A stretch of DNA of 64,000 nt from a virus. The DNA is taken from positions 9,557-73,556 of IMG/VR virus record IMGVR_UViG_3300036715_002359, one strand, 5' to 3'. This document shows, piece by piece, positions 24,145 through 49,641 of the stretch (within the stretch, counting starts at the first letter, position 1; every line of letters starts with the position of its first letter). The notes beneath the pieces are model-generated. The model saw nothing but the letters and a program-made list of their open reading frames with translations, was not told where the DNA came from and searched no databases. Made by a program: the position numbers and the translations under genes.

Positions 24145-24945
24145 TCAACAACCAGCTATTGATAAGTTATTTCCGCTTGCTATAGTTTGTGCCGGTCCTG
24201 TTGGAGAAGCGTTATTAGCTACAGCCTGTCCACTGCTTTCTGTTACTGGTAATCCTGTGGGTCCTTGCCCGTTATTAGCTATTTTATACGCCTCTCCTCT
24301 AATTATAGAATTAGCGTAAGCCTCTGGAGTAGTACCAGGTTTATCAGATGCTCCTAATCCTAAGTAGGCAGCAACAGCAGCGGTTAATTTATTAGAGTAT
24401 GTTCCAGTTTTTACTAAACCAGGAGCAAGTTCTTTATATTTGCCTTCTAACACCACTAAAGCACATTTAATTTGTTTCTCGTACGTGTCATCCCCTAGTA
24501 GAATTGTTTCTACAGACTCTCCTGGATTCACTAAACAATCAGAAGTTATATCAGGACGTAATCGTTCCATCTCAGATTTACCACTAGGCCCAGCACCTTT
24601 TATAACATACCAACCAGTAACTTGGCCAAGCCCAAAAGCAGCGTTAGCATTAACTATATTGGTTTTTTCTAAAGCCGTTCCAGAATTATATTTGCTAGAT
24701 ATGGCAGAAAGTTTTAATAGTTTTTTTAAAGCGTCATCTGAGTAGCTAATTCCTCGCTTAGAAACAAAAGAACTTTCCCTGTAAATCATAGCCATCACAA
24801 CATTAACTATATCTGGAGCTTGGCCTAAAGTATTAGCAAAGTTTGCTTTTAGTTGGTCAACCACTAGTTGTCTAATTATCTGCCTATTAGCAGGAGATGA
24901 CACAACTTGTTTAGCCATACCATTAGAGGTATTAGTACTTACCAT
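24145..24945 (-). CDS. Lysozyme-fold (lytic transglycosylase-like) protein, possibly virion-associated
   Basis: AMIYRESSF (catalytic Glu), AFGLGQV, AVAAYLG motifs. Confidence 0.65.
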   Translation of the reverse strand: MVSTNTSNGMAKQVVSSPANRQIIRQLVVDQLKANFANTLGQAPDIVNVVMAMIYRESSFVSKRGISYSDDALKKLLKLSAISSKYNSGTALEKTNIVNANAAFGLGQVTGWYVIKGAGPSGKSEMERLRPDITSDCLVNPGESVETILLGDDTYEKQIKCALVVLEGKYKELAPGLVKTGTYSNKLTAAVAAYLGLGASDKPGTTPEAYANSIIRGEAYKIANNGQGPTGLPVTESSGQAVANNASPTGPAQTIASGNNLSIAGC

Positions 24946-26758
24946 CTGTAGGATCTCCGAATTCTGTACCCATCATATAAGAAGCAATAGGATCAGTTGA
25001 ATGAATTGCACTCTCTTCGTTATAAGCGGCGGCATTTTCAATCGTGTCTTTAAGTTTATTAAATGACAGTTTAGATACCCAATTTTTATCTAGTAACTTA
25101 GCAGTTTGTAAACCAGGAACAATAGGAGTTACTCTAAGTTTAGATGAGGATACATCTACTTTAGTAATACCTTTTTCTTTTAATTCCTGAACGTGGTTAT
25201 AGTCTAATAGAGTACCTGGAGTTAAATCCAATACTCCTTTAGCTAAAACTTTGCCTTCAGCATCGTCAATATCGACTACCTTTTGATGCCCAATAAGATA
25301 TTTAGCAATAACATCCACATTAAGTTTATCGCCTGGTAGAAATCCAGTTTCACCCGGATCTATCACTTGTACGTATTTGATAAGGTTACGTGCAATCAAT
25401 TCAAAGTGACGAGGGTCTAATCCTCCACCATAAATGTGACGCAGTTCGTCAGCCATGTATTTACGGCCAGCACCCATACCACGTAGATGTACTAGTTTAC
25501 GAGGATTTATAACTCCAGTAGATATGCGATCACCTTGTTTAACATGGTCACCAGCTTTAACTACCAATTCTTGATTAATGGGAACGAAGTGTTTTTGTCC
25601 TTCGATGTATACGTTATGATCACCTAGAGGGGTTTTAACAATTGACTCAACAAGGCCATTAACATTAGAAATAGTAGCTTCATCTTTAAAATTCTCAGAT
25701 GGATTCATAAGAATATTAGAAGCTTGTTCGTAAGCATTACCCTTACGTTCACCAACTGTGGCTCTGTGTTTGGTTGATAACATAGCCTGTGTCAAAACTT
25801 CAGTTACATATTGAGCGGCTATGACCCCAACGTTTTCACCAATATTAGGCATTTTACCATTAGCCATTAGTCCGAAACATTTTTTACAAACTCCGTCTGG
25901 AGCTTCACAAGTCATAGAACTACGGACTTTAACTTCTTTCTTTCCAGAGTTTGCAAGTTCAGCTTGATAGTCTTGTGTAATTTCTCTATTAGTTCCAGCC
26001 TCAAATCTTCCTGTAACAGATTTTTTATCTGAAACATCTTTCATGATACCGTTCTTAGTTCCACAATCATCTATTGTAATGGTTTCGTGAAATACGGTTG
26101 GAGATAACTTCTTGAACAAGGCACCAGGAAGGGCTGTGGAGAGCTGTGCTAACACTGTTGAGGCCCTACCCATGTAACTCATGGCAAGATGCTCAGCGGG
26201 GCTCATACCCTCTGCAAATGAATGTTTGATAACAATAGGGAGTAACTCACCTTTAATGTTTGAAGACATCAATGGAGTTGAAGTACCAACGGCTAATTGT
26301 TTAGGATTACCACGAGCACCAGTGTTAGCCATCATAGCTGCAACTGATCCTTTACCTAATAAATAGTCCAGATTTTGTTTTTCAATCATACCATTATACT
26401 TACCGGTAAGATTTGTCAAAGCATTATTAAGTTCAACTTTATTTTTTGTTTTTTCTTTTAAGTCTTTAACTTTATAGTCGAATTCTTTAATGATAGCTTG
26501 ACGTTCATCAGAGTCATTCATGTAATCCGAAAGAGGGGTACTCGCTCCAATTTCGGTAGCTTTATTAAAGAATTGCTGGCCAAGATTATTAATATGTTCG
26601 TGAGCTTCGTCTCCCCCATGCTCTAACAACATATTGACGAGGTTGGACATTCCACCTTTATCTAAACGACGATGGATATCAAATCGGTTTTTCGATTCTT
26701 CGGTAGGCATTCCATGCTTTAAAAGCAATGCACCGGCAGTAGTTAGTTTTTCGCTCAT
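24932..26758 (-). CDS. rpoC: RNA polymerase beta' subunit, C-terminal part
   Basis: MANTGARG, IKHSFAEGM, bridge helix GRASTVLAQLSTALPGALFKKL, DDCGT, VRSSMTC...GVCKKCFG, trigger loop GENVGVIAAQ...TQAMLSTKH, DPRHFELIAR. Confidence 0.92.
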   Translation of the reverse strand: MSEKLTTAGALLLKHGMPTEESKNRFDIHRRLDKGGMSNLVNMLLEHGGDEAHEHINNLGQQFFNKATEIGASTPLSDYMNDSDERQAIIKEFDYKVKDLKEKTKNKVELNNALTNLTGKYNGMIEKQNLDYLLGKGSVAAMMANTGARGNPKQLAVGTSTPLMSSNIKGELLPIVIKHSFAEGMSPAEHLAMSYMGRASTVLAQLSTALPGALFKKLSPTVFHETITIDDCGTKNGIMKDVSDKKSVTGRFEAGTNREITQDYQAELANSGKKEVKVRSSMTCEAPDGVCKKCFGLMANGKMPNIGENVGVIAAQYVTEVLTQAMLSTKHRATVGERKGNAYEQASNILMNPSENFKDEATISNVNGLVESIVKTPLGDHNVYIEGQKHFVPINQELVVKAGDHVKQGDRISTGVINPRKLVHLRGMGAGRKYMADELRHIYGGGLDPRHFELIARNLIKYVQVIDPGETGFLPGDKLNVDVIAKYLIGHQKVVDIDDAEGKVLAKGVLDLTPGTLLDYNHVQELKEKGITKVDVSSSKLRVTPIVPGLQTAKLLDKNWVSKLSFNKLKDTIENAAAYNEESAIHSTDPIASYMMGTEFGDPTDGKY

Positions 26759-26762
26759 GTTA

Positions 26763-27214
26763 CTATTTTAGAAGTTGTTGTTTGGAATTTCTTGGCTTAC
26801 CCATTTTTGGTATAGATACTTTTCTTTTATGTTCCTCTGAATGTTTTCTACCTTTATTACCATTTTCTTTTTTAGGTCCTATAATTTTTTCTTTTTTGAG
26901 GTATACTCTTCCAGATTTTAGTAAAGATTCAGAAATTTTTAGCTTTTGTTCCTCTGACTATTATTATATGCTTTATTTCCTCCGGACATAACTGTAGCAG
27001 CAAAAATTATTCCTAAATGACTAGGATATAATTTTATTAATAATTGATGTGCCACGTAATGTTCTTCAGTAGTTAATGAAACTAAATTTTCTAAATCATT
27101 AGACCCTCTTAGGCATTTAGGAATGGTATGATATTTTTCAGTGTCAACTTCTTTTGACAAATTTCTATTTTTTGCTTTAACTATTAATCTGTCGTATATA
27201 ATTTTATAATTCAT
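26763..27214 (-). pseudogene. Frameshifted HNH/NUMOD3 homing endonuclease
   Basis: MNYKIIYDRLI...EKYHTIPKCLRGSNDLENLVSLTTEEHYVAH stops at 26939. A second frame continues SEEQKLKISES...GRKHSEEHKRKVS (NUMOD3-like) to TAG at 26763. Confidence 0.75.
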
Positions 27215-27243
27215 ATTTCAATTTTACACTATCGTAGACGTTT

Positions 27244-27253
27244 ATGGTATAAG
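27244..27253 (+). promoter_or_regulatory. Putative early promoter (ATGGTATAAG variant)
   Basis: One mismatch to consensus; TAAAGTG extension as at 59340. Confidence 0.7.
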
Positions 27254-27306
27254 TAAAGTGGGAGAAAACGTTGTATCCCGATTTTACAATCCACAGGAGA
27301 AGTAAC

Positions 27307-27462
27307 ATGACGGTAGATGAATTTAACAATCAGCCCAGGCCAACTTTTGATCAACGAGTAAAATTTCCTATAAAACAGGAGATGATTCGTTCATCCAATG
27401 TTAAGCCTCGTCCATTTGTCCCGCAACTTATGACATTACTCGGTAATGCTCGAAGGGGATAA
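27307..27462 (+). CDS. Small hypothetical protein
   Basis: AGGAG RBS before ATG at 27307, within ORF 27271..27462. Confidence 0.55.
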   Translation: MTVDEFNNQPRPTFDQRVKFPIKQEMIRSSNVKPRPFVPQLMTLLGNARRG

Positions 27463-27464
27463 AA

Positions 27465-27746
27465 ATGAGCCACTCCAATCAATCAGCATCAGAATTAAAG
27501 ACTTTTGCTTTCAGATGTGAGTGGATTGACAAATCCAATAATCCTGACGGATTTACCTATGCAATAACAGGTAAGGATTTGGAGGAAGAAATAATTCGTC
27601 GTCAGAACCGATGCGGCGGTAAAGCTATTAAAAGAAAAGTAGTTCTGGTGCGATATCCATTCTGGGAAATGATAAAGTCCAGGAAAGTACCGGTATATTC
27701 CACAGTCGAGGGTAAACACCCCGACGATGTAGAAAAGTTCATTTAA
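27465..27746 (+). CDS. Hypothetical protein
   Basis: 93 aa, GGGG RBS. Confidence 0.65.
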   Translation: MSHSNQSASELKTFAFRCEWIDKSNNPDGFTYAITGKDLEEEIIRRQNRCGGKAIKRKVVLVRYPFWEMIKSRKVPVYSTVEGKHPDDVEKFI

Positions 27747-27774
27747 TAACCTGTAATATAACTTGGAGTAAAGT

Positions 27775-28362
27775 ATGACTAACAAAACCAAACCTTTGCA
27801 AAGCATTCGTGCTCGTATCTTTCTCGTACTTTCCTCTCAGCCATTGAAAGAATGGGGAATTTCCGAAATTAAAACGGTGCTGGCCGCAGAAGGTTATAAC
27901 CCATCTTCTGTAAAACCAGCAATCATGAAGATGTACAACGAAAACCTCGTCACTATCGCTTCTGGCGGTGGCCGTGGTAATCCGTACTTGTTCAAACCAG
28001 TACATGGTGCCCCGGTTCCTATCGATGACAAAGGTTACAAACCACGTGCTAATCGCAAGACCAAGCACATCACCAAGGTCAGCAAAATGGCTCGTAAGGT
28101 TAAGGCTGAAGTTGCCAAAACCAACAAAACAATCCGTGAAGGCAAGGCACCAGTGCTGACACCTATTATAAAGTCTGTACCAATTGATAAAAAAGTGCAT
28201 TCTCAAATAATTGGTATCTTGGCTGATGGTGTGGTTTCGGTGAAGGACATTAACCCTAACGTCCCGTACCTGTTGTACCATGGCAAAATAATGCCGTTGG
28301 CCGAAGTCAAAGAAATCCTCAAACAATGGGAAGTTCTGACCGAGGCATTGAAAGGCTTGTAA
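27775..28362 (+). CDS. Putative winged-helix DNA-binding protein with lysine-rich linker
   Basis: IFLVLS...GISEIKTVL...SSVKPAIMKMYNENLV...GRGNPYLF wHTH-like pattern; GGAG RBS. Confidence 0.6.
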   Translation: MTNKTKPLQSIRARIFLVLSSQPLKEWGISEIKTVLAAEGYNPSSVKPAIMKMYNENLVTIASGGGRGNPYLFKPVHGAPVPIDDKGYKPRANRKTKHITKVSKMARKVKAEVAKTNKTIREGKAPVLTPIIKSVPIDKKVHSQIIGILADGVVSVKDINPNVPYLLYHGKIMPLAEVKEILKQWEVLTEALKGL

Positions 28363-28377
28363 CTTAACGAGGTAATC

Positions 28378-28566
28378 ATGGCCAAAAAAGACATTCGGTA
28401 TCAACTTGGTGAAGTATGTAAGTGGTCAAGAGACCACCAGGTAGTGTTCCGCTATGTGGACATTTATCAGTCTAACCAAACAACTTCTAGTTTGAGTCAT
28501 CAGACTATTTCCCTTCCAGAAGAAGAGGCTCGTAAGTTAGTTAATTACATGGCCAATTCTCGTTGA
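28378..28566 (+). CDS. Hypothetical protein
   Basis: 62 aa, GAGGT RBS, followed by a terminator. Confidence 0.65.
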   Translation: MAKKDIRYQLGEVCKWSRDHQVVFRYVDIYQSNQTTSSLSHQTISLPEEEARKLVNYMANSR

Positions 28567-28569
28567 ATT

Positions 28570-28598
28570 AAAACGGCGCTCTTATAGGCCGTTTTTTT
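28570..28598 (+). terminator. Intrinsic terminator
   Basis: AAAACGGC...GCCGTTTTTTT. Confidence 0.8.
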
Positions 28599-28620
28599 AG
28601 TTTCATTAAATCGTTTGTAT

Positions 28621-28630
28621 TTGGTAAAAG
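28621..28630 (+). promoter_or_regulatory. Putative early promoter (TTGGTAAAAG variant)
   Basis: One mismatch; lies just after a terminator and before an AGGA-led ORF. Confidence 0.55.
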
Positions 28631-28660
28631 ATTGATAGATACAACCTATTTAGGAAAAAC

Positions 28661-28927
28661 ATGGAAGATGAAATCACAGAAATAACCGAAGAGTCTTCGG
28701 TGTTTATGAAACTTATGCCAGTCATTGATATATCTTTTTTAGATACTAATGTCGTGGGTAACGCTTTATTTTACTCAGGATATGATGAAGACGATGATTT
28801 ATTATCCGATCAGTACTTTGAATGGCACATGGGTTGGAATGGAAATGAATTCGCAAAAGCATTGAACATAGCTTTATTGGCTAAACAGGTTCCAGAAAAT
28901 TCTGTTATCCTGCTGAAAATGTATTAA
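28661..28927 (+). CDS. Acidic hypothetical protein
   Basis: 88 aa, AGGA RBS. Confidence 0.65.
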   Translation: MEDEITEITEESSVFMKLMPVIDISFLDTNVVGNALFYSGYDEDDDLLSDQYFEWHMGWNGNEFAKALNIALLAKQVPENSVILLKMY

Positions 28928-28943
28928 TTATTAAGGAATATTT

Positions 28944-30332
28944 ATGGGCGGAAAAGCTCTGTTAGAAAAACATCCGGGCATTAAACGCTTGACCCGTGAT
29001 GAATTTGCTATGATATCAAACGAACTTGTTCAGAAGTTTCGTGGGTTATTCAGAAATTACAATACTGAAATTCGAGTCCTTCCCACTTATTCAGATAAGA
29101 CGAGTTTTGGAGATGTAGACTTTATTGTAGATGCTAGTAGACTACCTCAAGGTATAGATGGTGATAATTGGAAACAGATGATTATCCAGCATTTCAAACC
29201 TAAAGCTGTTGTAGAAAATGGAAATATATTCTCGTTTGAATATAAAAATCATCAGATAGATATTATCTCCGTGATTTCTAATAACTACGCATTTTCATTT
29301 CAGTATTATTCATATAATGGAATGGGTAGTTTGATGGGTAATGTGGCTAAGGCCATGGGGTTGAAACTAACTGAAACTGGATTGTATCTTCCAGTTTACC
29401 AAGGTCAACAAAAAATTGAAGATATCCTAATCACTAATGATTGGGGTCAAATGTCCAGCGTTTTAGGTTACGGTAGTAACCGATATGGGTACTCTTTTGA
29501 TCGTCTTTCTTCAATCCTTTCTTATTTATCTTCGTGTGTCTACTTCTCTCAGGAGTTATACAACGTAGAAACTATGAATGCTGATGAAAGAGGGTCTTAC
29601 GGTAATCTACCTATATACAAAGATTTTGTAGAGTACATAACGGCACACAAAGCTACTTTGAAAAACTATAATTTTGAGTCCAGTCCTAAGCCTTGGATGT
29701 CTTTGATTAAAACAAGTTTTCCACAAGTGGTTGATCGTAGTAAAGAACTGATGGAAATTCTAGCTAAAGAAAGAATTTTTAAGCAGAAATTCAACGGTGA
29801 AGTTATTATGGCTGCTACCGGTATTACAGAAGGTAAAGGTCTTGGTAAATTCATCGAAGCTTTTAAGAAATCCTTTCCCGGACCTTTAGAGTTTGATATT
29901 TTTATTATGAGCTCTTTGCCTTCCACAATTGAAGAAAAACTGAAGGCTTTTCAGGAAGAATATGTTAAGACTTTGAAAGTGGAAACCAGTATTGGTAAAT
30001 TAACTGCTGTTAAAGATTTATCTAAAGAACCGAGATTAGATAAAAACCCTAATTTTAGAATTGATTCCAATCCCGTATCTGAAAGTGATCATATTCGAGA
30101 AATACTCCTTGAACAAATAACTCTAGAGTACGAAGATGAACGAGCATCTACTTTACAAGCTCGGCAGTTAGTTGAAGTAGTTACAGAACTACCATCCTCT
30201 CCTCCTCCACCTTTGGCTGCTATTCCACGAGCCCCTAGACCTCCACGGCCTATGGTAGCTTTAGAAGCTATTGATGTTCCTAGCCAAGAAGAAGCTGAAG
30301 AAATAGTTCGAGAACTACAGTCTCGATCGTAG
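28944..30332 (+). CDS. Pol beta/PolX-superfamily nucleotidyltransferase
   Basis: KTSFGDVDFIV (DxD), QIDII third Asp, AKAMGLKLTETGLY PolX-thumb-like segment; proline-rich disordered tail. Confidence 0.75.
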   Translation: MGGKALLEKHPGIKRLTRDEFAMISNELVQKFRGLFRNYNTEIRVLPTYSDKTSFGDVDFIVDASRLPQGIDGDNWKQMIIQHFKPKAVVENGNIFSFEYKNHQIDIISVISNNYAFSFQYYSYNGMGSLMGNVAKAMGLKLTETGLYLPVYQGQQKIEDILITNDWGQMSSVLGYGSNRYGYSFDRLSSILSYLSSCVYFSQELYNVETMNADERGSYGNLPIYKDFVEYITAHKATLKNYNFESSPKPWMSLIKTSFPQVVDRSKELMEILAKERIFKQKFNGEVIMAATGITEGKGLGKFIEAFKKSFPGPLEFDIFIMSSLPSTIEEKLKAFQEEYVKTLKVETSIGKLTAVKDLSKEPRLDKNPNFRIDSNPVSESDHIREILLEQITLEYEDERASTLQARQLVEVVTELPSSPPPPLAAIPRAPRPPRPMVALEAIDVPSQEEAEEIVRELQSRS

Positions 30333-30338
30333 TATAAT

Positions 30339-30365
30339 AGACGGTGCTGTATGGCCGTCTTTTTT
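30339..30365 (+). terminator. Intrinsic terminator
   Basis: AGACGG...CCGTCT plus T-tract. Confidence 0.75.
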
Positions 30366-30380
30366 AGCCTTAACAAGTCT

Positions 30381-30387
30381 TAAAATA
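30381..30387 (+). promoter_or_regulatory. Putative late promoter motif TAAAATA on the plus strand
   Basis: 8 nt before the ATG of the phosphoesterase gene, just after a terminator. Confidence 0.5.
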
Positions 30388-30395
30388 GAAATACC

Positions 30396-31097
30396 ATGTT
30401 CAAAGATAATACTCCAATTTTACTCACTCGACAACTACACTTAGCTGATAGAGCAGGTAGACACTATGACATTCGTTTAGTGTTGGGAGACAAAGCTTAT
30501 TCCTGGGCTACTCGTAAGGATATGCCAGCAGTGGGAGAAGCTATAGCTTTGTACGAACAGCCAGTTCACACTGCAGAATATGCCATGCGTAGACGTATAG
30601 TTATCCCTAGAGGAAACTATGGTAGTGGAATAACCACTTTAGATTTTGTTAGAAAAGCATTAGCCACTAACAGTGATGGTGGTAAAGATAAGTTTGTACT
30701 TACGGTTCCAGAATCTGGTGAACGTTATTTGTTTAAGAAATTTGGTGGACAGAACGGGAATACTTGGATGTTAAAGAACCTAGGTGAAAGAAAAATAGAA
30801 GAGACTCCAGTGACTAATAAATACTTAGAAAAAATAGCGTCATTTAGACCAAAAAAGAATAATGAACCTAACGGTAAATTTGAAGACCGAGCAGGGTTTA
30901 AGAGTCGCTTTGCTGAAATGTTTGATGCTTCAGTTAAAAGTCGTAAGATGAACAAAGATAAAGTAAAGAATTATAAGTGGGGTAAAGCTGTCGGGATTGC
31001 CAACAAGGATGGACATTTGGTGAAATTAATGGTACCATCTAAGACTGAGCCTGGTAAACATTTCACTCTTAAACATCCTGATTATAAAGGTAAATAA
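30396..31097 (+). CDS. LigD-type 3'-phosphoesterase domain protein fused to a VTNKYLEKIA-tagged basic tail
   Basis: QLHLADRAGRHYDIRL, YSWA, VHTAEYA, IPRGNYGSG match the LigD PE motifs (HxxxxxHYDxR, H..Y, IPxGxYGxG). Confidence 0.85.
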   Translation: MFKDNTPILLTRQLHLADRAGRHYDIRLVLGDKAYSWATRKDMPAVGEAIALYEQPVHTAEYAMRRRIVIPRGNYGSGITTLDFVRKALATNSDGGKDKFVLTVPESGERYLFKKFGGQNGNTWMLKNLGERKIEETPVTNKYLEKIASFRPKKNNEPNGKFEDRAGFKSRFAEMFDASVKSRKMNKDKVKNYKWGKAVGIANKDGHLVKLMVPSKTEPGKHFTLKHPDYKGK

Positions 31098-31136
31098 TAA
31101 ATAGGTATCTTGAGAAAATAGAAAGCAAGTAAGTGC

Positions 31137-31331
31137 TTGACTCCTAATGCCATTTATCAATTATCTGTTAACCCTATCGAAAATAGTATTGGAGTTAAAG
31201 TTTTGCTTCCAAAACATATAATCATCCCTTCTGAGCATAATTCTAAATTAAAAATGGAAATGCATGATTCGCTAGAATCGATATTAGCCAAGTATTTTAT
31301 AAAAACAAAATTAAATGTACCCACGTCATAA
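31137..31331 (+). CDS. Possible small hypothetical protein
   Basis: 64-aa TTG-start ORF filling the gap between the PE and ligase genes. Confidence 0.4.
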   Translation: MTPNAIYQLSVNPIENSIGVKVLLPKHIIIPSEHNSKLKMEMHDSLESILAKYFIKTKLNVPTS

Positions 31332-32202: not shown

Positions 32203-32212
32203 AGTTAAAAAT

Positions 32213-32222
32213 TTGGTATAAG
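32213..32222 (+). promoter_or_regulatory. Putative early promoter TTGGTATAAG
   Basis: Exact motif. Confidence 0.75.
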
Positions 32223-32289
32223 TAAGATGTGAGGATAATAAAACAAACCCACAAATCCAACTCAATAATTCCACCACAGGAGTTTACAC

Positions 32290-32688: not shown

Positions 32689-32701
32689 CGAGGAGAACAA
32701 T

Positions 32702-33085: not shown

Positions 33086-33086
33086 C

Positions 33087-33121: not shown

Positions 33122-33128
33122 AGCTTAA

Positions 33129-38102: not shown

Positions 38103-38123
38103 GGTTATATTATACGTTATTTC

Positions 38124-39254: not shown

Positions 39255-39255
39255 T

Positions 39256-42200: not shown

Positions 42201-42780
42201 ATACTGCACTATTTTTACGGTATATAGTGCTTGCACCAGTATTACCGTCAGTAATTTTAAGTTTAGGAAAATTAGTAAGAGCCTGGTATGTCCAAATACG
42301 ACCGTCAGTTGATACCATGCAAGAATCTAACAATGAAACGACTGAAGCTCCACTAGAATAAAATGCACGAAACTTCGTACCATCCCAACAAGGAGAAGTT
42401 ACATATTGTGAAGCAACAGGAAAAATACCTTGAAGAACAGAAGTTCCACTGGAATCCATAACTGTAATACCAGCAACAGTTCCGCCCGTGAACAGCATAA
42501 CTGTTACAGTGCCAGCTGTATTGGTAGCAGCACTACCAACATAGTTACTAGCAGAGCCTAATGGATTACTAGAAGTTGTAGGTAAAGTATTACCTCCAGC
42601 TTGCAAACTATTTGCAAACGAGTTAAATGTACCTTGAGCTGGAAATTGAGTAGCCAGAATTTTAGTTCCTGTCTGAGCCCAAGTTCCATTACTATTTGAT
42701 ATTACTGGTGAGATTGCAACGATGTCAATGATATCGCCAAAACCATATTTTGATCCACTACTAGATGTCGAACGACCCAT
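39256..42780 (-). CDS. Large beta-propeller (Asp-box/BNR repeat) receptor-binding or tail-fibre protein
   Basis: 1174 aa with more than 15 SxDGxxW repeats. Confidence 0.8.
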   Translation of the reverse strand: MGRSTSSSGSKYGFGDIIDIVAISPVISNSNGTWAQTGTKILATQFPAQGTFNSFANSLQAGGNTLPTTSSNPLGSASNYVGSAATNTAGTVTVMLFTGGTVAGITVMDSSGTSVLQGIFPVASQYVTSPCWDGTKFRAFYSSGASVVSLLDSCMVSTDGRIWTYQALTNFPKLKITDGNTGASTIYRKNSAVSNGAIRDTTATCGVVWMGARWIAFGGENESFAPDTLASNVGTATSYGQSASSSSDGITWTPCESTFFGGAGSASGAGYWRINVTSINVNSTSTSVVLRDTIANVIYTRNSTDGGITWSNPNAARGIGVANVGQIMSYTANGKFFAFGGSALGGYAISISTDGVNWNTYPVVGASGIYHIAYGNGLYVTNLWYGTTWMISYSVDGINWKSKQVLGVQTYNNSISLGANQQNYIAFGNGLFVASTYNGTSNVYFNSPDGINWTVGVGQPGGAGITLGQILFNPGSGYFKTVSGNTTTCHYSADGKTWNVDTALPTTPSAPSSYPAFAVSGTTFVVLSAGANYYTATTNGWTTRTHSGVTNTARSLTYASTPGLFAAVSGGSMYTSPDGVTWTNRTFTGSTAATVIIVATPTLFAAYPYNTASSSFAILPSNYSGFQMSTSSNGTAWTNTTAVAPTDNFAAPLSINDQYAYANGIYVALIYGNTYATSTDSVNWTIRTYNVQGIEPKLITSSGTLFVAATTVTSTLVMTSSDGITWTNRTIPSTTVNRLDFAPGGTLFFISTNSSTQMYSSSDGITWNSGTYPGSQTPGDSKGQSIAFGAGKYVIPYTASTLAYSSNGTTWTNCTGSGAGMIYVAFYNGLFWAFDNTNASNPKTSADGITFATNTNYSGYNTGQIVAGSGGQVMIGVSQMSYDNGATIKNLNNLLPGTLIAGSSWPKYVNGYFSIMTGAIMSRCDGYSWSALNITGTDIASFSLIRRQNGNTIQKSVLYNNLIGGVIVSTDNLKSYHYVTVDKTIVANSTSVPITCAAYFSSVILAVQTGGRLYRSTDDGVTFAVYTLTGLTGVVTSVLSDATRMYIFSNQGEVITSTDGSTWTRRLLPLSTNYPGIAAEIAAASSSSVMVSAGTGSTYFTTSDSAVTWKASNELGSTAAKLFYVGTPGVYFGGTDSGATAVVLNSDITNGYASVTLPSVTALRTGLTTYIKAA

Positions 42781-42782
42781 TA

Positions 42783-43094
42783 TTATTCCTCGTAACCGTA
42801 AACATTAACTGATACACCAGTCGAGTTTGAGTAAGCAACAATGTTATGTGTCGCTGCTATCACTAAACCAGAATCCTCTATAATTCCATTTCCATCTACT
42901 AATACATCGTACTCAATCCATTCGGAGAGCGCTGGTGTACCAGTCACAGACAATGCTAAACGCACAGTTACTGCTGAACTATTTCTATTTGTTATTCTAA
43001 CAGTACACGATGTGGTTTTACCAAAAGGTACAGTATACACTGTAGTATTGGTAAGTGCTGCAAGATCAGCAGTGCCTAATTTTCCGTTTGCCAT
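42783..43094 (-). CDS. Small virion structural protein
   Basis: TNTTVYTVP...VRITNRNSSAVTVRLA; paralogous pattern to 43781..44116. Confidence 0.7.
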   Translation of the reverse strand: MANGKLGTADLAALTNTTVYTVPFGKTTSCTVRITNRNSSAVTVRLALSVTGTPALSEWIEYDVLVDGNGIIEDSGLVIAATHNIVAYSNSTGVSVNVYGYEE

Positions 43095-43103
43095 ATTTGT
43101 TCC

Positions 43104-43520
43104 TTAAGAGTTAATGCCGAAGAGTAAACGACCTCTAGAGACACCATCTGTAATTCCGTATCCTGCTGTAGTTGTTGGAGTATTTAGTATCTTTGCCCAA
43201 GCAACTGAAACCATTTTTGCATCGGTAATTGTACCATCTGAGGGTATACCGATAGTCATAACGTCTCCTAATAGTACCACAAAACAAGATTGGGAAATAG
43301 TAGGAGCGGTGGTAAAAATAATAGTATTTAAAGAGACGGTATAATCCACACCTGGATTTTGCCATACACCAGCTAAAGATACTAAAAGATTTTGAGCTGA
43401 ACCTGGAGTTACTGCTGTTCCTCCAACTTGGCAGGTAAAAGTCGTTGTCACTCCGTTAAACGTGAATGCGTCTAACTTTGAATAGCTTCCGTATTGAGGT
43501 TGTTTACCAATATATGACAT
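43104..43520 (-). CDS. Virion structural/tail-fibre-associated protein
   Basis: MSYIGKQP...FNGVTTTF...QNLLVSLAGVWQNPGVDYTV...IIFTTAP; TAAAATA 4 nt upstream. Confidence 0.7.
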   Translation of the reverse strand: MSYIGKQPQYGSYSKLDAFTFNGVTTTFTCQVGGTAVTPGSAQNLLVSLAGVWQNPGVDYTVSLNTIIFTTAPTISQSCFVVLLGDVMTIGIPSDGTITDAKMVSVAWAKILNTPTTTAGYGITDGVSRGRLLFGINS

Positions 43521-43548
43521 GACTTATTTTACCTTAATGGTTCTGTTT

Positions 43549-43779
43549 TTACGCAAACGCTGTAATGATTTCACCAGCTTTTGCTAGCGCCCCAAGGCTA
43601 GTCAGTGCTCCACCAGCAGTAGCGGCATTAGTACCACCTTGTGTAACACCGACTTGTCCAGTTAGTACAGAAGCAGGGACAGGTATAGCAATAGTTCCAG
43701 TTAATTTGGAAGCATCTACCGATACAATATCCGTGTTTTGTAGTGGTACAGCAGTGGGTTTATTACCTACATAACTCAT
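43549..43779 (-). CDS. Short, probably truncated tail-fibre-like protein
   Basis: MSYVGNKP...VGVTQGGTNAATAGGALTSLGALAKAG then ends abruptly. Confidence 0.5.
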   Translation of the reverse strand: MSYVGNKPTAVPLQNTDIVSVDASKLTGTIAIPVPASVLTGQVGVTQGGTNAATAGGALTSLGALAKAGEIITAFA

Positions 43780-43780
43780 A

Positions 43781-44116
43781 TTAGCTCAGCTCTAAAATAC
43801 TAATTATAACATCAGCAGAAGATGCGACAGTAGAAATAACTTGAATATAATCGGTTGTTTCTAATACGACTTTTTGTTCGCCACCAACTATAACTAAAGA
43901 ACCCCCTACGGGTATAGGAGCGTTTTTTATTAAATAGACTGTCTTGGTTCCTGAAACGTCAGTAGCAGTTACATCAACGTTAATTTGAGTAGATGGCAAA
44001 CGATTGGAAACCGATAGTCCGATGATCGTACTTGTTGTTGCGGCAGGAGTTGTGTACGCTGTTGTAAGCGAAGTACCTACAGCCACTGTAAAACTATTTT
44101 TAAATGTATTTGCCAT
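43781..44116 (-). CDS. Small virion structural protein
   Basis: MANTFKN...YTTPAATTSTIIGLSVSN...LIKNAPIPVGGSLVIVGGEQKVVLE...SADVIISILE. Confidence 0.75.
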   Translation of the reverse strand: MANTFKNSFTVAVGTSLTTAYTTPAATTSTIIGLSVSNRLPSTQINVDVTATDVSGTKTVYLIKNAPIPVGGSLVIVGGEQKVVLETTDYIQVISTVASSADVIISILELS

Positions 44117-44134
44117 CGTAGTTCCTTTTAATTA

Positions 44135-44381
44135 TTACCAGTATTCTATTCTTATTCCACCAGCGCCGCCATTACCTCCACTACCGGCACCGGCTGCACC
44201 TCCATTAGAACTTGAAGGGTATGTACTATCTCCGCCACTATTCCACCAAATAGTTTGAGTAAGCTGATGCAATGTTAGCACCATGAGAGGCATTAAGAAC
44301 TCCCGTACCATCAGATAACAAACCTGAAGTAGCGATAGTTGATAACCCTGTTACTACTGTTGCTGGAACTTTAGTAGTCAT
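44135..44381 (-). pseudogene. Internally deleted tail-fibre gene remnant
   Basis: ATG 44381 MTTKVPATVVTGLSTIATSG...* joined out of frame to a Gly-rich C-terminus GGAAGAGSGGNGGAGGIRIEYW*. Confidence 0.6.
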
Positions 44382-44384
44382 TTA

Positions 44385-44684
44385 TTACCCCAGTGCGATA
44401 GCTAAAGCTAAAGCATTACTATTAGCGACTGATACACTATGTGCAGTAGCAGCTTGTGTTGTTGATGACGAAACTCCAGTATCTTCAAGTTGAACAATAC
44501 CTGGCACCGAGGTAGTAGCAGAAGGTACTGAAACTCCAGCCCATTTAGTACCATCCCAAGACAAAGTAGAGTTAGTGGTAGTTGACCAAATTAAAGAACC
44601 TTGACCATCAGCAGGAGTAGGCGTAGTAGCGTTTAACGCTACAGCCATGTTGGAGAGCGTTAAATAATCAAGCTCTTTTGACAT
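44385..44684 (-). CDS. Small tail-fibre-associated protein
   Basis: ATTSVPGIVQL...SSTTQAATAHSV fibre repeat; ends ALALAIALG. Confidence 0.7.
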   Translation of the reverse strand: MSKELDYLTLSNMAVALNATTPTPADGQGSLIWSTTTNSTLSWDGTKWAGVSVPSATTSVPGIVQLEDTGVSSSTTQAATAHSVSVANSNALALAIALG

Positions 44685-45811
44685 TATGCTACCCAGTCTA
44701 CTGTGTAGTTTGTGCTGGTTGGGGGTGCAACATTAAATATAACTTTAAAAGTATTAACAGTATCATACTGAATACTTGGACGAACCAAAGCAAAAGGTGA
44801 GCCTTGTTGCGTAACAAAGACTGGGAATCCTTTTTTGTTCTGATTATGAGTAACAGTAAACACAGTAGTTGTACTATCACCAACAATAGTAGTTGCTGTA
44901 GCTGTACGAGCAACTGTACCGTCAACTGAAACACCACCTGGAGCAACGGAGACACCCCCACCAGAAGCTGGGTTAATAATAACTTGATTTCCGGTAATAG
45001 TAATACCGTTACCAGCAGTGTAAATAGACGATGCTGAGAATTGATTAAACACCAAGACTGTAGTACCAACCACAATTGGATTAACTGTAGCAAGAATCCA
45101 GGAAGTTGTTTGAGCAGTTGTACCTTCTTCAATAACGCAGAACATACCAGTGGTTACATTGCTACCTGAATTGGCATCACTACGACGAGCCCAAGCCCCA
45201 GCAGCTGCGACCCAAATACCATTCTGTGAACCAGTAGTCTGATTCTTAACCAAAATAGCATCCCCGGAAGTCAGAGTACCTGGCCAATCTCCACCTGTCT
45301 GATAGGTTAAACCCGTTAAGTTTACGTTACCAATAGTAGTGTAACGAACCGAAGGTTTAGCATCAATACCTGCTGCTGATTGTTGTACTTGGCTGATAAC
45401 CCATTGACGAGTAGCTGCATCGGAGTTAGAAACTGGATCAGCAACGTTAGTGAGTAATTGATTGCCCATACTTACTGAAGCGGTAGGAGCAGTTAATTGA
45501 TCCAATCTATTAGTACGAACTTGGGTATCAAAGTTGCTAATAGTACTAGCAGTTTGAGTACCTGTATGATTACTACGATTAAGTGGATCTACTGCTAAAG
45601 CACTAAGAGGAATACCCGAAGCTTTAACAGGGTCCATCGTAATCCAAACTGTATTAGCTTGGTTACGCATACGAGGAGCGTCAAGTGTAGTATCATAGTA
45701 CATTTGACGTGGTAATGGTGATCCTGGTGCTGAAGCTAGTGCCTCCAGTGACGCTCTGATTAGCGAGTTACCCGCTAAGTCAATATCTACTAAGATTAAT
45801 TCATTTGACAC
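44684..45811 (-). CDS. Tail-fibre/virion structural protein
   Basis: GTG start with AAGGA RBS; RSNHTGTQTASTISNF, DAATRQWV, ILVKNQTTGSQNGIWV...WARRSDA modules. Confidence 0.75.
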   Translation of the reverse strand: MSNELILVDIDLAGNSLIRASLEALASAPGSPLPRQMYYDTTLDAPRMRNQANTVWITMDPVKASGIPLSALAVDPLNRSNHTGTQTASTISNFDTQVRTNRLDQLTAPTASVSMGNQLLTNVADPVSNSDAATRQWVISQVQQSAAGIDAKPSVRYTTIGNVNLTGLTYQTGGDWPGTLTSGDAILVKNQTTGSQNGIWVAAAGAWARRSDANSGSNVTTGMFCVIEEGTTAQTTSWILATVNPIVVGTTVLVFNQFSASSIYTAGNGITITGNQVIINPASGGGVSVAPGGVSVDGTVARTATATTIVGDSTTTVFTVTHNQNKKGFPVFVTQQGSPFALVRPSIQYDTVNTFKVIFNVAPPTSTNYTVDWVA

Positions 45812-45823
45812 TTTGTTTGTCCT

Positions 45824-46180
45824 TTAATTTAAATATGCTGTCCCAGCAAACGCTGCTGAGAATGTTAATATGATTTGATTTGCATTAGTATAACTAACTG
45901 CACTTCTAACTTTACGACCAGTAGAATCAATTACTGAAACACTTGGAAATTTTCCTAAGCTATGGTCAATAACCCACAAAGTTGAAGCAACAGGTTGAGA
46001 AAATGGATAAGTAGCTCCTTGAGAACCAGGAATTCCTTGATCTCCTTTAGTGCCAGGAACTCCTTGATCCCCTTTAGGGCCGGGATCTCCGGGCAAGCCT
46101 TTAACACCGATATCCTCGTTTGTGTTAACGATTTGACCGGGTTGATTATTAGCGAATCTGGCAGGATCTCTTGAGCCCAT
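45824..46180 (-). CDS. Collagen-like (G-X-Y) virion protein
   Basis: GLPGDPGPKGDQGVPGTKGDQGIPGSQG plus a WVIDHSLGKFPSVSVID domain. Confidence 0.75.
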   Translation of the reverse strand: MGSRDPARFANNQPGQIVNTNEDIGVKGLPGDPGPKGDQGVPGTKGDQGIPGSQGATYPFSQPVASTLWVIDHSLGKFPSVSVIDSTGRKVRSAVSYTNANQIILTFSAAFAGTAYLN

Positions 46181-46218
46181 GTTTTACCTTTGTTAATTAT
46201 TTTAAGTCAGTGTCTTTA

Positions 46219-49200
46219 TTAATTGATCAAATCATCATCTTCAATTTCTTCTGGCTCTTGTTCTTCTTCTACTAAGTTAGAAGCGTGAGTATTAATGGTT
46301 TTTAGATATTTACCAGTTGAAGTGTCATGCACATGGAAGATACCATCTTTCTCATGAACAAGACCCATAGTGCCAGTAGCTAAAGCATCAAACTCAGAAC
46401 TTTTTAAACCTAACAAAGATTTTACAGGACGTTCAAATACAGGATTAACAATTGATTCAGCTAACTTATAGTGAGTCCACTTTGTGCCTTTAACACCACC
46501 AGTTAAAGCTGCATCAAATAGACCACCTTTTTCTGGCTCCAGATTTTTAGCCGATAAACGTAATGGTTCTTTTAAAGCACCATTAGACTGAGCAAGAATA
46601 TCTGCATCAGTCATAGGACTAGCCGTAATAATACCATTATCAATTGAAGTTTTAACTCCAGATGCATTCAGGTAATTAAGGAATTTTTCTGTAGCAAAGG
46701 TTTGACGTGGCTTAGGCAATGGCTGACCAGTAACGAACTTTCTCCAGTAATCAGAATTTTCTTGACTCTTAAGCGTTGCAATTTCTTTCAAATTTTTACG
46801 GGCATCAGATCCCATTAGGCCCAACATTTCCATATACCCAACGGACTTAGAACCTTCTTCACCACCTTTAGTTGGCTGAAGGTTATTATCGTATCCACCA
46901 ACGTTACGAGCTGAATAGTTTTGATCAGAGGTTTTGTACAGTTTAGTAAAGTACTGTGGCCCTGTTAATACTTTGCCGAGATCTTTACCAGTCTTTGGAT
47001 CAACAAACATTTCACTATCGGGAATACCATGCTTTTGTAATTCAGCATGTAACTCACCAATGTTAGAAGTCTTCGAGAAATTATGGATAAGATAAGGCTT
47101 ACCTGTTTTCAAAGCAATTTTACCTGCAACAGTTTCCATCAACTGACCAAGATTAATACGTGAAGTAACAGAGGCTGGGTTCAAAACGATATCAGCTGGC
47201 TTACCTGTTTCTTTGTTGTAAGGCATTTCATTATCATTTAGAATTAACGACACAATACCTTTGTTACCGTGAAAACCAGTCAGTTTATCCCCAACTTCTA
47301 AATCTTTGACGGAACGCATAAGAATACGAATAGCCTTACCAGCTGTATGCGCATCGACTACTTCACCTGGTTCATCGTGTGACCAAATTTCAGATACTGG
47401 ACGATATGGTAAAACCAAGGTCTTATGTAAACGACCAAGCATTTTATCTTCTGGTGTTGGCTCACGTTTTTCTAAGACAATATATACTGGATCACCTTTT
47501 TTGAATATGGCTCCGATGTTAGGAAAGCCACGATCATCTAGCTTATCCAATTGTTCTCTTGTCCACTTACCAGGAAAATAACGTGGTAATAGAGATTTTT
47601 TTAATACAGTAGATGCTTGAATATCGTAATCAACTTTATAAGCATGATGACTTGCCAGGCTATCGGCGCAAGTCTTACTGATGACTAATCCATCTTCGTG
47701 ATTGTAGCCCTTGTAAGGCATGTAAGCGACGTTTAAATTCTTTCCTAATGCCAGCCCACCATCCTTGGTGTAATTGTTATCTACAAGTACTTGGAAGCGT
47801 TTAACAGTGTCTCCAACTTTGACCAAAGGAGCGTCATCGTCATAAAAACCCTTCATGTTAAAAGGAAGATTTTTAACCAATGTTATAGTATGGTTTTTAC
47901 CGTCGTCCGTTCCTTTGATAACTATTTTTTCTTTGGAAATAGAAACAACAACTCCGTCAACTGGAGAAGCTGTAGCGGAAATAGTTTTAGCCAATTGCAT
48001 AATAAATGGAACCCCATTAGAATCAACTGTTTGAACCAATGGTTGTTCACGATTCACTAAAGACAATGCTTGAGGAATAGCTTTACCTGCCATAGTTAAA
48101 CGGCCAGGATGATTAGAATTTAAGAAAGGCACAAGGTTAGTTGTAACAGTGTACATGTCAGTAGTATCGGCAAGCCAATAGTCAATGTCCTTAACGTCAC
48201 AATCCCCAAGTACACCTTTGACTTGAGCTTGAACTATTTTCTTACCTTTTTGATGAGGAAATCCAATAGTAGAAGTCATCATTTCGTGTACCGATAGGAA
48301 ATGTTCTTTACCTGCTTTATCTAATACTCGGCAATAGGTATTACCTTCTTTGTCACGACGAGCAGAGATAGTGAAACGTTGATCAATACCGGCATGGCCT
48401 GATTCTGGAGTACGACTAGGGTCAATGATACCTAAATGAGACGGATCAATATCACGGGCACTCATAGGAACGCCACGCTCATTACCAATACCACCTTCAA
48501 GTCCACCGAGAATAGTTACTTTACCAACGTTCTCTAAAGATTCGATTGGATTAGTTTCACTCGGAGTAGTAACCAAGTTAGATTCAAGTATATATGATGA
48601 GAATAGTTTATTAAAAGGCTTTGATACAACTGTGTTTTTAATCTTAATTGGTTCACCGGTTTTTTCAGCACGATCCAAAGAATACGCAATACGACTCTTC
48701 AAAGTACCAGTCAGAAGTTTTTCCTTTTTGAAACGAGTCTCTAGAAAGTCAGGTAAGTTCTGAACGCTTTTAAATTGTAAAGAGTCACGATTATCTTCTG
48801 GCTTTTTACCAGCATGAACTTCAACCAGATTACGTAAACTAAGCAGCAAGGCTTCATGAGTAACCGAAGCTATAGGTTTACCCAAAGTAACTTTAGTAGT
48901 AGCAACCGAAAGTTGGGAATTCTCTAAAGCTAAACGTAATGCAAGGATCTTATCTTCTTCACTAGCAGAAGGATCTTTTTTAAATACTAGTTTTTGGTAA
49001 AGATCATTGATGATCTTACCTTCTTTACCAGCAGAAGCCGTTAGATTTTCATGCCATACTTCACCGGGAACGTACGCCATAATTTCTTTAGGGCCAACAT
49101 TAAATACTCTACTTAACAACGGAGCTAAAAGAATACGTGAACTTTTAACTTCTAAGTAGAACAACATAGACTGAGGATCAAGTGTAAGCGAAAAAGAACT

Positions 49201-49641
49201 ACCACTACCAGTATTGTAGTGAGCCTCTAACTCTCCAGTTTCTCTTGAACGAGTATATACTCCTGGACGTAATTGTAATTGATTGGCAATAGCGTAGTTA
49301 TTACCACGGTAAAGCATAGTGTGCTTACCAGTAATATGAAATGCGTCCATAAGATTGAAATCTTTTTGAACGTCTACTACCTTACCAGTTTGATTTTCAG
49401 TTAAAGTCAATGTTCCACGAATAGGATACACCAAACTCTTACTAGTTAAAATGGCTTCTTTCTCATCTGCGGCTGTAAAATGCTTAGGCTCAGGTCTAAT
49501 ATCAGAAACACTCAGAGTATAATTCTTAGTAACGATAGGGAATTGGGAAGTCACACCCGCAACTAGAGCAGCGTCAACATTGTGACTAATTTCTTCTGGA
49601 GATGAGAATATGCGTTGTAGGTCTTGGGCTTGTTTAGGCAT
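46219..49641 (-). CDS. rpoB: RNA polymerase beta subunit fused to beta' N-terminal segment
   Basis: QLQLRPGVY, RDIDPSHLGIIDPSRTPES, GYNHEDG, GDKLTGFHGNKGIVS, LNPASVTSRINLGQ, QPTKGG. The C-terminal PEKGGLFD...WTHYKLAESIVNP resembles the beta' N-terminus. Confidence 0.92.
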   Translation of the reverse strand: MPKQAQDLQRIFSSPEEISHNVDAALVAGVTSQFPIVTKNYTLSVSDIRPEPKHFTAADEKEAILTSKSLVYPIRGTLTLTENQTGKVVDVQKDFNLMDAFHITGKHTMLYRGNNYAIANQLQLRPGVYTRSRETGELEAHYNTGSGSSFSLTLDPQSMLFYLEVKSSRILLAPLLSRVFNVGPKEIMAYVPGEVWHENLTASAGKEGKIINDLYQKLVFKKDPSASEEDKILALRLALENSQLSVATTKVTLGKPIASVTHEALLLSLRNLVEVHAGKKPEDNRDSLQFKSVQNLPDFLETRFKKEKLLTGTLKSRIAYSLDRAEKTGEPIKIKNTVVSKPFNKLFSSYILESNLVTTPSETNPIESLENVGKVTILGGLEGGIGNERGVPMSARDIDPSHLGIIDPSRTPESGHAGIDQRFTISARRDKEGNTYCRVLDKAGKEHFLSVHEMMTSTIGFPHQKGKKIVQAQVKGVLGDCDVKDIDYWLADTTDMYTVTTNLVPFLNSNHPGRLTMAGKAIPQALSLVNREQPLVQTVDSNGVPFIMQLAKTISATASPVDGVVVSISKEKIVIKGTDDGKNHTITLVKNLPFNMKGFYDDDAPLVKVGDTVKRFQVLVDNNYTKDGGLALGKNLNVAYMPYKGYNHEDGLVISKTCADSLASHHAYKVDYDIQASTVLKKSLLPRYFPGKWTREQLDKLDDRGFPNIGAIFKKGDPVYIVLEKREPTPEDKMLGRLHKTLVLPYRPVSEIWSHDEPGEVVDAHTAGKAIRILMRSVKDLEVGDKLTGFHGNKGIVSLILNDNEMPYNKETGKPADIVLNPASVTSRINLGQLMETVAGKIALKTGKPYLIHNFSKTSNIGELHAELQKHGIPDSEMFVDPKTGKDLGKVLTGPQYFTKLYKTSDQNYSARNVGGYDNNLQPTKGGEEGSKSVGYMEMLGLMGSDARKNLKEIATLKSQENSDYWRKFVTGQPLPKPRQTFATEKFLNYLNASGVKTSIDNGIITASPMTDADILAQSNGALKEPLRLSAKNLEPEKGGLFDAALTGGVKGTKWTHYKLAESIVNPVFERPVKSLLGLKSSEFDALATGTMGLVHEKDGIFHVHDTSTGKYLKTINTHASNLVEEEQEPEEIEDDDLIN

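Follow-up and report, generated by a model that had tools for sequence, protein, structure and literature searches.

A bacterial-type RNA polymerase in three scattered pieces in an Arash-like phage, a re-cut variant of a beta::beta' fusion family

In this work we analysed a stretch of 64,000 nucleotides (nt) of viral DNA, called the window below, which corresponds to bases 9557-73556 of the 73,556-bp contig IMGVR_UViG_3300036715_002359 (CheckV completeness 42%). The source phage is uncultured and Arash-like, with a full genome of roughly 175-185 kb. On its minus strand the window carries three intact open reading frames (ORFs) with RNA polymerase domains, which according to Pfam make up one bacterial-type RNA polymerase (RNAP); Pfam finds no polymerase domain in the other large ORFs of the region. 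The core totals 2,137 amino acids (aa) in three proteins, P0001 (1140), P0002 (389) and P0003 (608). An earlier note on this DNA, made from the sequence without database searches, had placed the genes about 8-10 kb apart on one strand, and as measured here pieces 1 and 2 are separated by 8,116 nt and pieces 2 and 3 by 10,174 nt, all three genes being on the minus strand. The pieces and their parts are as follows.

46219-49641, minus strand: P0001 (piece 1), 1140 aa, all of beta, a beta' stub and an acidic tail; Pfam Rpb2_6
46636..49641, minus strand: unsplit beta (piece 1 residues 1 to ~1002), from Pfam and PDB beta chains
46282..46635, minus strand: beta' N-terminal stub (piece 1 residues ~1003-1120), equivalent to E. 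coli beta' ~17-140, with no linker and no zinc (Zn) finger
46222..46281, minus strand: acidic tail (last ~20 residues of piece 1), extra sequence new at the cut
36933-38102, minus strand: P0002 (piece 2), 389 aa, the beta' middle with clamp helices and catalytic double-psi barrel; motif YAGDYDGD
24932-26758, minus strand: P0003 (piece 3), 608 aa, remainder of beta' starting at TTAGA; contains the bridge helix, the trigger loop and the second Zn site

Subunit junctions in the three proteins

Beta is a single uncut stretch of ~1,000 aa according to both Pfam and PDB. Rpb2_6 (PF00562) covers P0001 562-926 (E 4.9e-57), and PDB beta chains cover residues 80 to ~1000 of P0001 (best E 1.4e-60). The catalytic barrel region of beta (Rpb2 domain 6, GDK...GNKG) is present in piece 1, where VGDKLTGFHGNKG is read. 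At the rifampicin cluster of bacterial beta, whose positions matter for the drug, the PDB alignment shows other residues in piece 1, which carries SNLVTTPSETNPIESLENVGKVT there, and because these pocket residues are replaced the enzyme would be expected to be insensitive to rifampicin.

The beta-beta' junction was located by a MAFFT alignment of the window pieces, single-chain relatives and E. coli RpoB and RpoC. The E. coli beta C-terminus (...INIELEDE) falls opposite P0001 ~991-1003, with beta' residue ~17 directly next, and the E. coli Zn-finger segment (~66-97) has no counterpart in piece 1 in either the MAFFT or the hhalign alignment. The nature of the C-terminal ~130 aa, on which the earlier note had made its reading depend, was checked with a profile restricted to the tail (7 sequences, 142 positions; PDB matches counted at E<=1): 36 of its 39 matches are beta' chains, at ~12-77 (mostly 15-55; best E 0.0034), the remaining three being small unrelated proteins. 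In addition, hhalign places P0001 1013-1079 onto E. coli beta' 28-126 with a 32-aa gap at the Zn finger (E 7e-4). In gp206 of the related Salmonella phage Arash the stub reads on without a stop into piece-2 sequence, and Rpb1_1 positions 11-261 match gp206 1022-1260 in one stretch (E 6.5e-7). Two points speak against this assignment, the low hhalign probability for the stub (26%) and the weakness of its single-sequence matches (E 0.0075 in PDB and E 0.19 in Pfam), the latter being what would suit a lineage-specific extension of beta with no kinship to beta'. We consider such an extension very improbable, as the profile matches to beta' N-termini gather at one position, as the Rpb1_1 match in Arash is continuous over the junction, and as the stub is predicted to pair with the beta' middle (see below). 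These alignments lead us to assign the C-terminal ~130 aa of piece 1 to the beta' N-terminus (~17-140), joined seamlessly to beta. The tail behind it is strongly acidic, the last 24 residues having a net charge of -10; a tail with a net charge of -7 or below is present in 17 of 20 split relatives and absent from the other three. Pfam, PDB, the tail profile and the charge thus agree with the succession of unsplit beta, beta' N-terminal segment and acidic tail described in the earlier note.

Piece 2 resumes beta' after the stub. P0002 11-354 aligns with E. coli beta' 174-515 (E 5e-46), GGPAF standing opposite GAEAI, and its end lies opposite E. coli beta' ~552. Pfam finds in it Rpb1_1 positions 159-261 and Rpb1_2 (PF00623; E 9e-17), and the DxDGD metal-binding motif of beta' reads YAGDYDGD opposite E. 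coli NADFDGD. P0003 begins with TTAGA, opposite E. coli TTVGR 572-576; it carries Rpb1_5 (PF04998), the bridge helix and trigger loop region, on residues 184-473 (E 5.4e-16), and PDB beta' chains match it at E 2e-41, covering E. coli 722-982. Alignment to E. coli RpoB and RpoC therefore reproduces the junctions as first mapped, the beta' middle starting at the GAEAI equivalent and the C-terminal part at the TTxGR equivalent. The cyanobacterial split had been said to lie near but not at the second junction, and this holds: P0003 31-335 aligns with cyanobacterial RpoC2 13-344 and P0002 7-379 with cyanobacterial gamma 177-549 of 624, gamma extending 75 residues beyond the last aligned P0002 residue, where P0002 has just 10 left. 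The offset between the two alignments places the phage cut ~18 residues upstream of the cyanobacterial one. In sequence terms the catalytic set is in place: GDK...GNKG is found in piece 1 and DYDGD in piece 2, while piece 3 supplies the regions of the bridge and the trigger loop.

Complex prediction for P0001 930-1140 and P0002, from alignments of 20 and 7 respectively, gave a score of 0.87 in three runs, against 0.00 for the best of three controls; the score mark is reached by 58 of 80 solved complexes and by 2 of 110 mismatched pairs. The runs agree in at least 84% of contacts, with a predicted local distance difference test score (pLDDT) of at least 74 for the partners, and the tightest predicted contacts are between P0001 1055-1066 and P0002 76-84. 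Since RNA polymerase structures have already been solved, this pass may reflect memory of the fold, and the prediction indicates likeness to the known fold, not binding. In the model, the beta' strand WTHYKLAE kept on beta (P0001 1055-1066) would slot beside piece 2 residues 76-84, so that in the three-piece form beta would be latched to beta' through an interdigitated fold: as the re-cut moved inside beta', the chains would interdigitate.

The fused family and the origin of the split

Among named phages, Salmonella phage Arash and Vibrio phages D69, D148 and D181 come closest (51-53% identity). Arash gp206 (1525 aa) contains, in one frame, P0001 1-1117 (53% identity) and P0002 8-387 (53%), and Arash gp216 corresponds to P0003; D69 is arranged in the same way, with pieces 1 and 2 in one protein. 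The window is thus a further-split variant, because a stop follows the stub and the 389-aa middle piece is encoded by a separate gene 8.1 kb away.

Fused forms are widespread. An exhaustive phmmer search of 1.84 billion representatives returned 9,540 matches, the best 150 of which (E<1e-165, 33-65% identity) were classified by the four parts of the window enzyme, some of them possibly being fragments. The beta' stub stands right behind beta in 150 of these best 150; 76 are single chains running from beta through stub and middle to the C-part (~1,985-2,090 aa, longer with insertions), 67 carry beta, stub and middle, and 7 carry beta and stub alone, like the window. A complete beta::beta' fusion of 2,041 aa is verified by Pfam. 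A single-sequence scan of viral contigs with this fusion gave no match, whereas an alignment-based scan of IMG/VR did, yielding at least 553 related stretches, among them a single ORF of 2,119 aa on a 163-kb viral contig; polymerase-bearing contigs of 160-205 kb come from many samples. The fusion therefore marks a very large, barely described phage clade. The fused ~1500-aa form accounts for 71 listed clusters of at least 1440 aa. The ~1140-aa form has 301 matches at E<=1e-3, and among the listed clusters other than the query 116 of 119 are 1100-1185 aa long, so that the three-piece pattern itself is common in metagenomes.

In a FastTree phylogeny of 114 beta regions rooted on E. coli beta, fused forms are basal and 37 of the 40 sampled split forms fall in one clade (support 1.0). 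With IQ-TREE (37 rows) the best tree has three state changes, of which well-supported branches force only one. Several independent origins of the three-piece form were considered on the strength of these three changes and not retained, as a single origin stands in the approximately unbiased test (not rejected, p 0.178). The split forms are nested inside the fused ones, and these trees indicate that the three-piece form is derived. The earlier note had proposed a distinct phage RNAP architecture; the layout is real, but it came about by the secondary cutting of a beta::beta' fusion and is not a free-standing design. In conclusion, within the fused beta::beta' phage polymerase family the window enzyme represents the variant with the most pieces, which are here also dispersed.

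The cut is a genuine gene fission. In the complete relative G001 (184,920 bp), beta and stub with an acidic tail are followed by a GC-rich hairpin and a T-run, then, ~70 nt on, by the new ATG of a 390-aa middle piece. Pieces 1 and 2 are adjacent in G001 and G005, 3.5 kb apart in G003, 8.1 kb in the window and 11.6 kb in G002. Two features of the window bear on this scatter.

38124..46180, minus strand: 8-kb cassette between pieces 1 and 2, with collagen-like, head-decoration-like, tail-fibre-like, 1174-aa DUF6242 and papain-like peptidase genes (PHROG, Pfam)
26939..27214, minus strand: truncated homing endonuclease, 180 nt upstream of piece 3; phrog_655, E 2.5e-31, profile positions 27-112 of 343

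The cassette is absent from the corresponding place in G001 and G005 and, because pieces 1 and 2 adjoin in these two relatives, the 8-kb separation is explained by a local insertion of tail-fibre-like genes. The truncated endonuclease gives a slight hint of mobile endonucleases having had a part in fragmenting and dispersing the polymerase genes. In D148 and D181 a homing endonuclease lies within the beta gene region.

A mis-assembly, a frameshift artefact or a decaying gene might in principle mimic such a split. Parts of the stretch occur in three DNA metagenome runs (microbial mat, sediment), and no RNA dataset is listed as containing it; the assembly is a low-coverage metagenome assembly, and the contigs of two runs mapped to 33001-52000 are short and of low depth, none of those listed spanning the piece junctions. 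Nevertheless, we give an artefact almost no weight, since 116 of the 119 listed clusters share the ~1140-aa form with an identical end, relatives carry, at the cut, a hairpin resembling a terminator and then a new start codon, the three ORFs are intact and 60-80% identical to their counterparts, and the spacings differ among G001, G002, G003 and G005.

Alternatively, split inteins could rejoin the pieces after translation, the working enzyme being one chain. Intein-like insertions abound in the family, where 147 representatives carry 94 that are longer than 150 aa, and LAGLIDADG and intein-splicing domains were confirmed by Pfam in two long relatives. However, the three pieces tile the single-chain beta::beta' proteins of relatives end to end with ~15-25 extra residues per cut, too few for split-intein halves, and Pfam finds no intein domain in the three proteins at E<=0.01, which makes rejoining highly unlikely. 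The insertion hot spots of the family lie at catalytic motifs, at positions equivalent to P0001 ~414, ~576-590, ~788 and ~1055, P0002 ~301-303 (right after DYDGD) and P0003 ~293 and ~331-343. The idea that the cuts are former intein sites was also tried and dropped: among the insertions that could be placed there is no hot spot at either of the two cuts, and two others, in P0287 and P0379, extend across the junction between stub and piece 2.

Two further observations concern the relatives. On the 205-kb viral contig L062 (8001-13997) the match to the full-length polymerase is spread over three ORFs, of 175, 598 and 1026 aa (table 11); cuts at different sites, frameshifts or an altered genetic code could account for this. 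A 286-aa ORF (G001:96060-96374, G004:59680-59976) is weakly similar to P0003 222-325, the Zn-site region (E 2.7e-6 and 9.6e-4), and may be a small paralogue of that segment. Apart from this weak match, G001 has one beta and one beta' C-part, that is, a single polymerase set.

Other subunits, neighbouring genes and the virion hypothesis

Pfam alpha (PF01000) and omega (PF01192) give no match at E<=1 in the 73.6-kb contig, nor are they found in four of four complete or near-complete relatives (G001, G006, Arash, D69), while 14 of 14 control genomes gave matches. Sigma-70 region 2 likewise has no match at E<=1 in the contig. It is present in the records of three of five relatives (G001, G002, G003), and sigma-70 region 4 in three of four, one of them above the cut-off. 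The window is collinear with G001 from ~12.1 kb onward, and the G001 sigma lies at 8.7-9.6 kb; by synteny, the sigma gene of the window phage would lie ~2.5-3.4 kb past the end of the window and contig, and it is probably missing from the window because the contig ends before this locus. The absence of all three subunits from the window, as first reported, is thus seen by Pfam too, that of sigma being probably accounted for by the contig end. In G001 the sigma-70-like gene consists of two ORFs ~190 nt apart (L013, G001:7240-10440; 1366-1755, 129 aa, region 2, and 1947-2372, 141 aa, region 4); in G002 and G003 it is one ORF, of 295 and 278 aa.

The polymerase genes stand among the following neighbours.

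49967..51799, minus strand: portal protein, 46% identical to Arash gp204 portal (phrog_2739, E 2.3e-13); heads the string portal, small ORF, beta
49668..49964, minus strand: conserved 98-aa ORF between portal and beta; 61% identity to L006, 55% to L011, 39% to L010, 30% to Arash gp205
28944-32202, plus strand: block between pieces 2 and 3, with DNA-polymerase-like (phrog_24943), LigD-type phosphoesterase-like and ligase OB-like genes; shared with G001
55453..57195, plus strand: SNF2-family helicase (Pfam SNF2-rel_dom, E 3.6e-14), 39% at the Arash gp198c locus and 64% to G001
62442-63998 (open end), plus strand: XPD-like helicase (DEAD_2 / Helicase_C_2), near the polymerase genes

SNF2 and XPD-like helicases are near the polymerase genes in Arash and G001 too, and a Swi2/Snf2 helicase is linked to RNAP genes in phiKZ-type phages according to the available text of a review. 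The 98-aa ORF was tried as a polymerase accessory and set aside: it has no Pfam or PHROG family and no usable Atlas feature match, and its Atlas model is poor (pLDDT 0.39, template modelling score at most 0.5 to unrelated folds).

A promoter-like motif, TTGGTATAAG, is enriched in the window. At one mismatch or less it occurs at 17 sites, compared with 6.8 expected, a number reached by none of 100 shuffles, and it is strongly biased for the plus strand, which carries 15 of the 17 sites and all 10 exact ones. The sites are mostly 50-80 nt upstream of plus-strand non-structural ORFs, and their extended consensus is tTGGTATAAGTAnAGTg.

3624, 5873, 7343, 11281, 12297, 32213, 51883, 52214, 57187 and 59340 (range 3624..59349), plus strand: exact TTGGTATAAG sites

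Counts of the 9-mer TGGTATAAG in relatives, with the reversed pattern as a control, are:

G001: forward 1, reverse 37, control 0-1
G002: forward 17, reverse 1, control 0
Arash: forward 0, reverse 18, control 0-1
D69: forward 0, reverse 3, control 0
G006 (single-chain): forward 2, reverse 0, control 2

In the window, G001, G002 and Arash, the 9-mer is thus enriched on the strand that does not encode the polymerase and structural genes, and it is plausible that the polymerase reads the TTGGTATAAG promoters. A candidate late promoter, TAAAATAAG / TTAAAATAA, was found upstream of structural-strand genes (e.g. at 3077, 14276, 24117, 43523 and 53066; five of six sites on the minus strand), but it is weak and was not retained: 6 sites compared with 2.3 expected are reached by 3 of 100 shuffles, and the relatives are not enriched.

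We propose as the probable explanation that the window encodes a single compact three-protein core, the product of a re-cut fusion, free of alpha and omega, packaged in the virion and sigma-dependent. An ancestral fused gene was cut first before TTxGR and later inside the beta' N-terminus, and in the window phage the 8-kb cassette of virion genes then came to lie between pieces 1 and 2. The core would work with phage-encoded sigma-70-type factors; it would be made late, alongside virion proteins, then packaged as in Arash, and in the next infection it would transcribe the opposite-strand non-structural genes from the TGGTATAAG (extended -10-like) promoters. Packaging is suggested by the position of the genes and by mass spectrometry of Arash virions, in which gp206 has the most spectra (3516), gp216 has 1210 and the sigma factor gp10 has 467 with 100% coverage, as given in the available text (PMC10585845).

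An alternative is that the virion does not deliver the polymerase: host RNA polymerase with its main sigma factor would read TGGTATAAG early, and the phage polymerase with phage sigma factors would serve middle and late genes. Several observations weigh against our proposal, some of them in favour of this alternative. TGGTATAAG fits TGnTATAAT, which we take to be the extended -10 consensus of host sigma-70, and because of this likeness it could also serve host polymerase, at any rate where the host is an enterobacterium. The motif is weakly present in D69 (3 sites) and not enriched in G006 (2 sites and 2 in the control). The phage's own sigma was not seen in the contig, and the absence of alpha and omega holds at Pfam sensitivity, so that some divergent protein, for instance the product of the 98-aa ORF, might fill their role. 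For the window phage, known here from sequence alone, packaging is an analogy. The Arash list comprises 116 virion proteins, ribonucleotide reductases among them, and the authors themselves point to possible carry-over of abundant proteins; in the virion table and available text, gp196 (a sigma) and gp205 do not occur (PMC10585845). On the other hand, the polymerase genes stand in structural strings, adjoining the portal gene, gp206 has the top spectral count in Arash and gp10 is fully covered (same source), and the motif is kept in Arash and the window clade despite only ~50% RNAP identity, which suggests co-inheritance with the phage's own machinery. We therefore regard early transcription by the host enzyme as unlikely, though by no means negligible, and retain the packaged, sigma-dependent core as our explanation.

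To our knowledge, an alpha-type platform underlies the assembly of every cellular RNA polymerase. What keeps alpha-less phage enzymes together is a question raised for phiKZ/AR9 (PMC7598289, available text), and the family described here offers a simple testable answer: beta and beta' were joined first and later cut inside beta'. As the family has no alpha or omega gene, the covalent beta-beta' link may stand in for the alpha-dimer platform. More tentatively, and with somewhat less than even confidence, the family may form a self-contained minimal system, a ~2,100-aa core without alpha and omega whose beta and beta' are covalently or topologically interlocked, and which is packaged and injected together with its own sigma, to read TGGTATAAG. 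If so, the three-piece form of the window would be a natural experiment, in which the tether is reducible to ~120 beta' residues on beta. The pairing of a phage core with phage sigma factors has no description in the available texts of three jumbo-phage reviews (PMC7598289, PMC7824862, PMC13282480). Cultured members exist (Arash and Vibrio phages D69, D148 and D181), and the family could yield a small polymerase, dependent on sigma and probably insensitive to rifampicin, of use in structural work and orthogonal expression. Its natural series of fusions, fissions and intein insertions also makes it a model for the evolution of subunit boundaries.

Comparison with known systems

That the three genes form one bacterial-type polymerase, with beta carrying the start of beta', is confirmed by the domain matches and alignments above. 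We found no paper on a beta-beta' fusion in phages, and the main texts, as available, of PMC7598289, PMC7824862, PMC13282480, PMC7481178 and PMC12153180 mention none. The closest published set consists of the multimeric RNAP-encoding Caudovirales (mReC) of Weinheimer & Aylward 2020 (PMC7481178), uncultured tailed phages with deep-branching bacterial-like beta and beta', found in IMG/VR and metagenomes; compared by description, they probably belong to the same broad clade as the window enzyme. In the available main text, 'fused' or 'fusion' is used only for crAssphage and 'split' occurs 0 times. The mReC filter, as described there, asks for beta and beta' matches of at least 800 aa and NADxDGD, and the window enzyme would fail it because its beta' pieces are of 389 and 608 aa and its motif is AGDYDGD. 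Among relatives, NADxDGD is found in 55 of 147, in 39 of those as NADFDGD.

The phiKZ/AR9 enzymes, as presented in the available texts, are also phage beta/beta' homologues without alpha and omega, with a virion-packaged form and a beta' cut after the barrel (PMC7598289). Their beta is itself cut, they come in two sets, virion and non-virion, and they have no sigma homologue (PMC7598289; also PMC7824862 and PMC13282480). In contrast, the beta of the window is whole and fused to beta', the relative G001 has one set, and relatives have sigma genes; the phiKZ/AR9 beta' cut is the cyanobacterial one (PMC7598289), and that in the window lies ~18 residues upstream of it. The window proteins are much closer to bacterial RNAPs, and no phiKZ/AR9 chain is among the PDB matches listed. 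The contrast drawn in the earlier note, an unsplit beta, a beta' cut elsewhere and one polymerase set, was right. The crAss-like phages share with the fused family a phage-encoded single chain with both barrels; their RNAP has no recognisable sequence homology to beta/beta' models (PMC7481178, available text), whereas the window family aligns readily with bacterial beta and beta'.

Cyanobacterial and plastid gamma (RpoC1) and RpoC2 resemble the window pieces in that beta' is cut shortly after the catalytic barrel, but the N-terminus of gamma is not on beta and the phage cut lies before TTxGR; these cells keep alpha, omega and the Zn finger. The natural rpoB-rpoC fusions of Helicobacter and Wolbachia and the engineered E. 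coli beta::beta' show that a beta-beta' link is functional. Unlike the phage enzymes, these cellular fusions have alpha2 and omega and an entire beta' N-terminus including its Zn finger, and they are not cut a second time.

Arash (OQ632216; PMC10585845), D69, D148 and D181 belong to the same clade as the window enzyme, with 50-53% identity over all three pieces. The Arash type shares with the window the gene order portal, small ORF, beta, the seamless beta-beta' join, the loss of the Zn finger and the cut before TTxGR; Arash also has, as in the window, TGGTATAAG on the opposite strand and no alpha or omega gene. In its available text the Arash paper names gp206 'subunit beta' without mention of fusion (PMC10585845). 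The Arash/D69 type differs in that pieces 1 and 2 form one protein of 1525-1527 aa, giving a two-piece enzyme, whereas the window has an extra cut and an 8-kb insertion.

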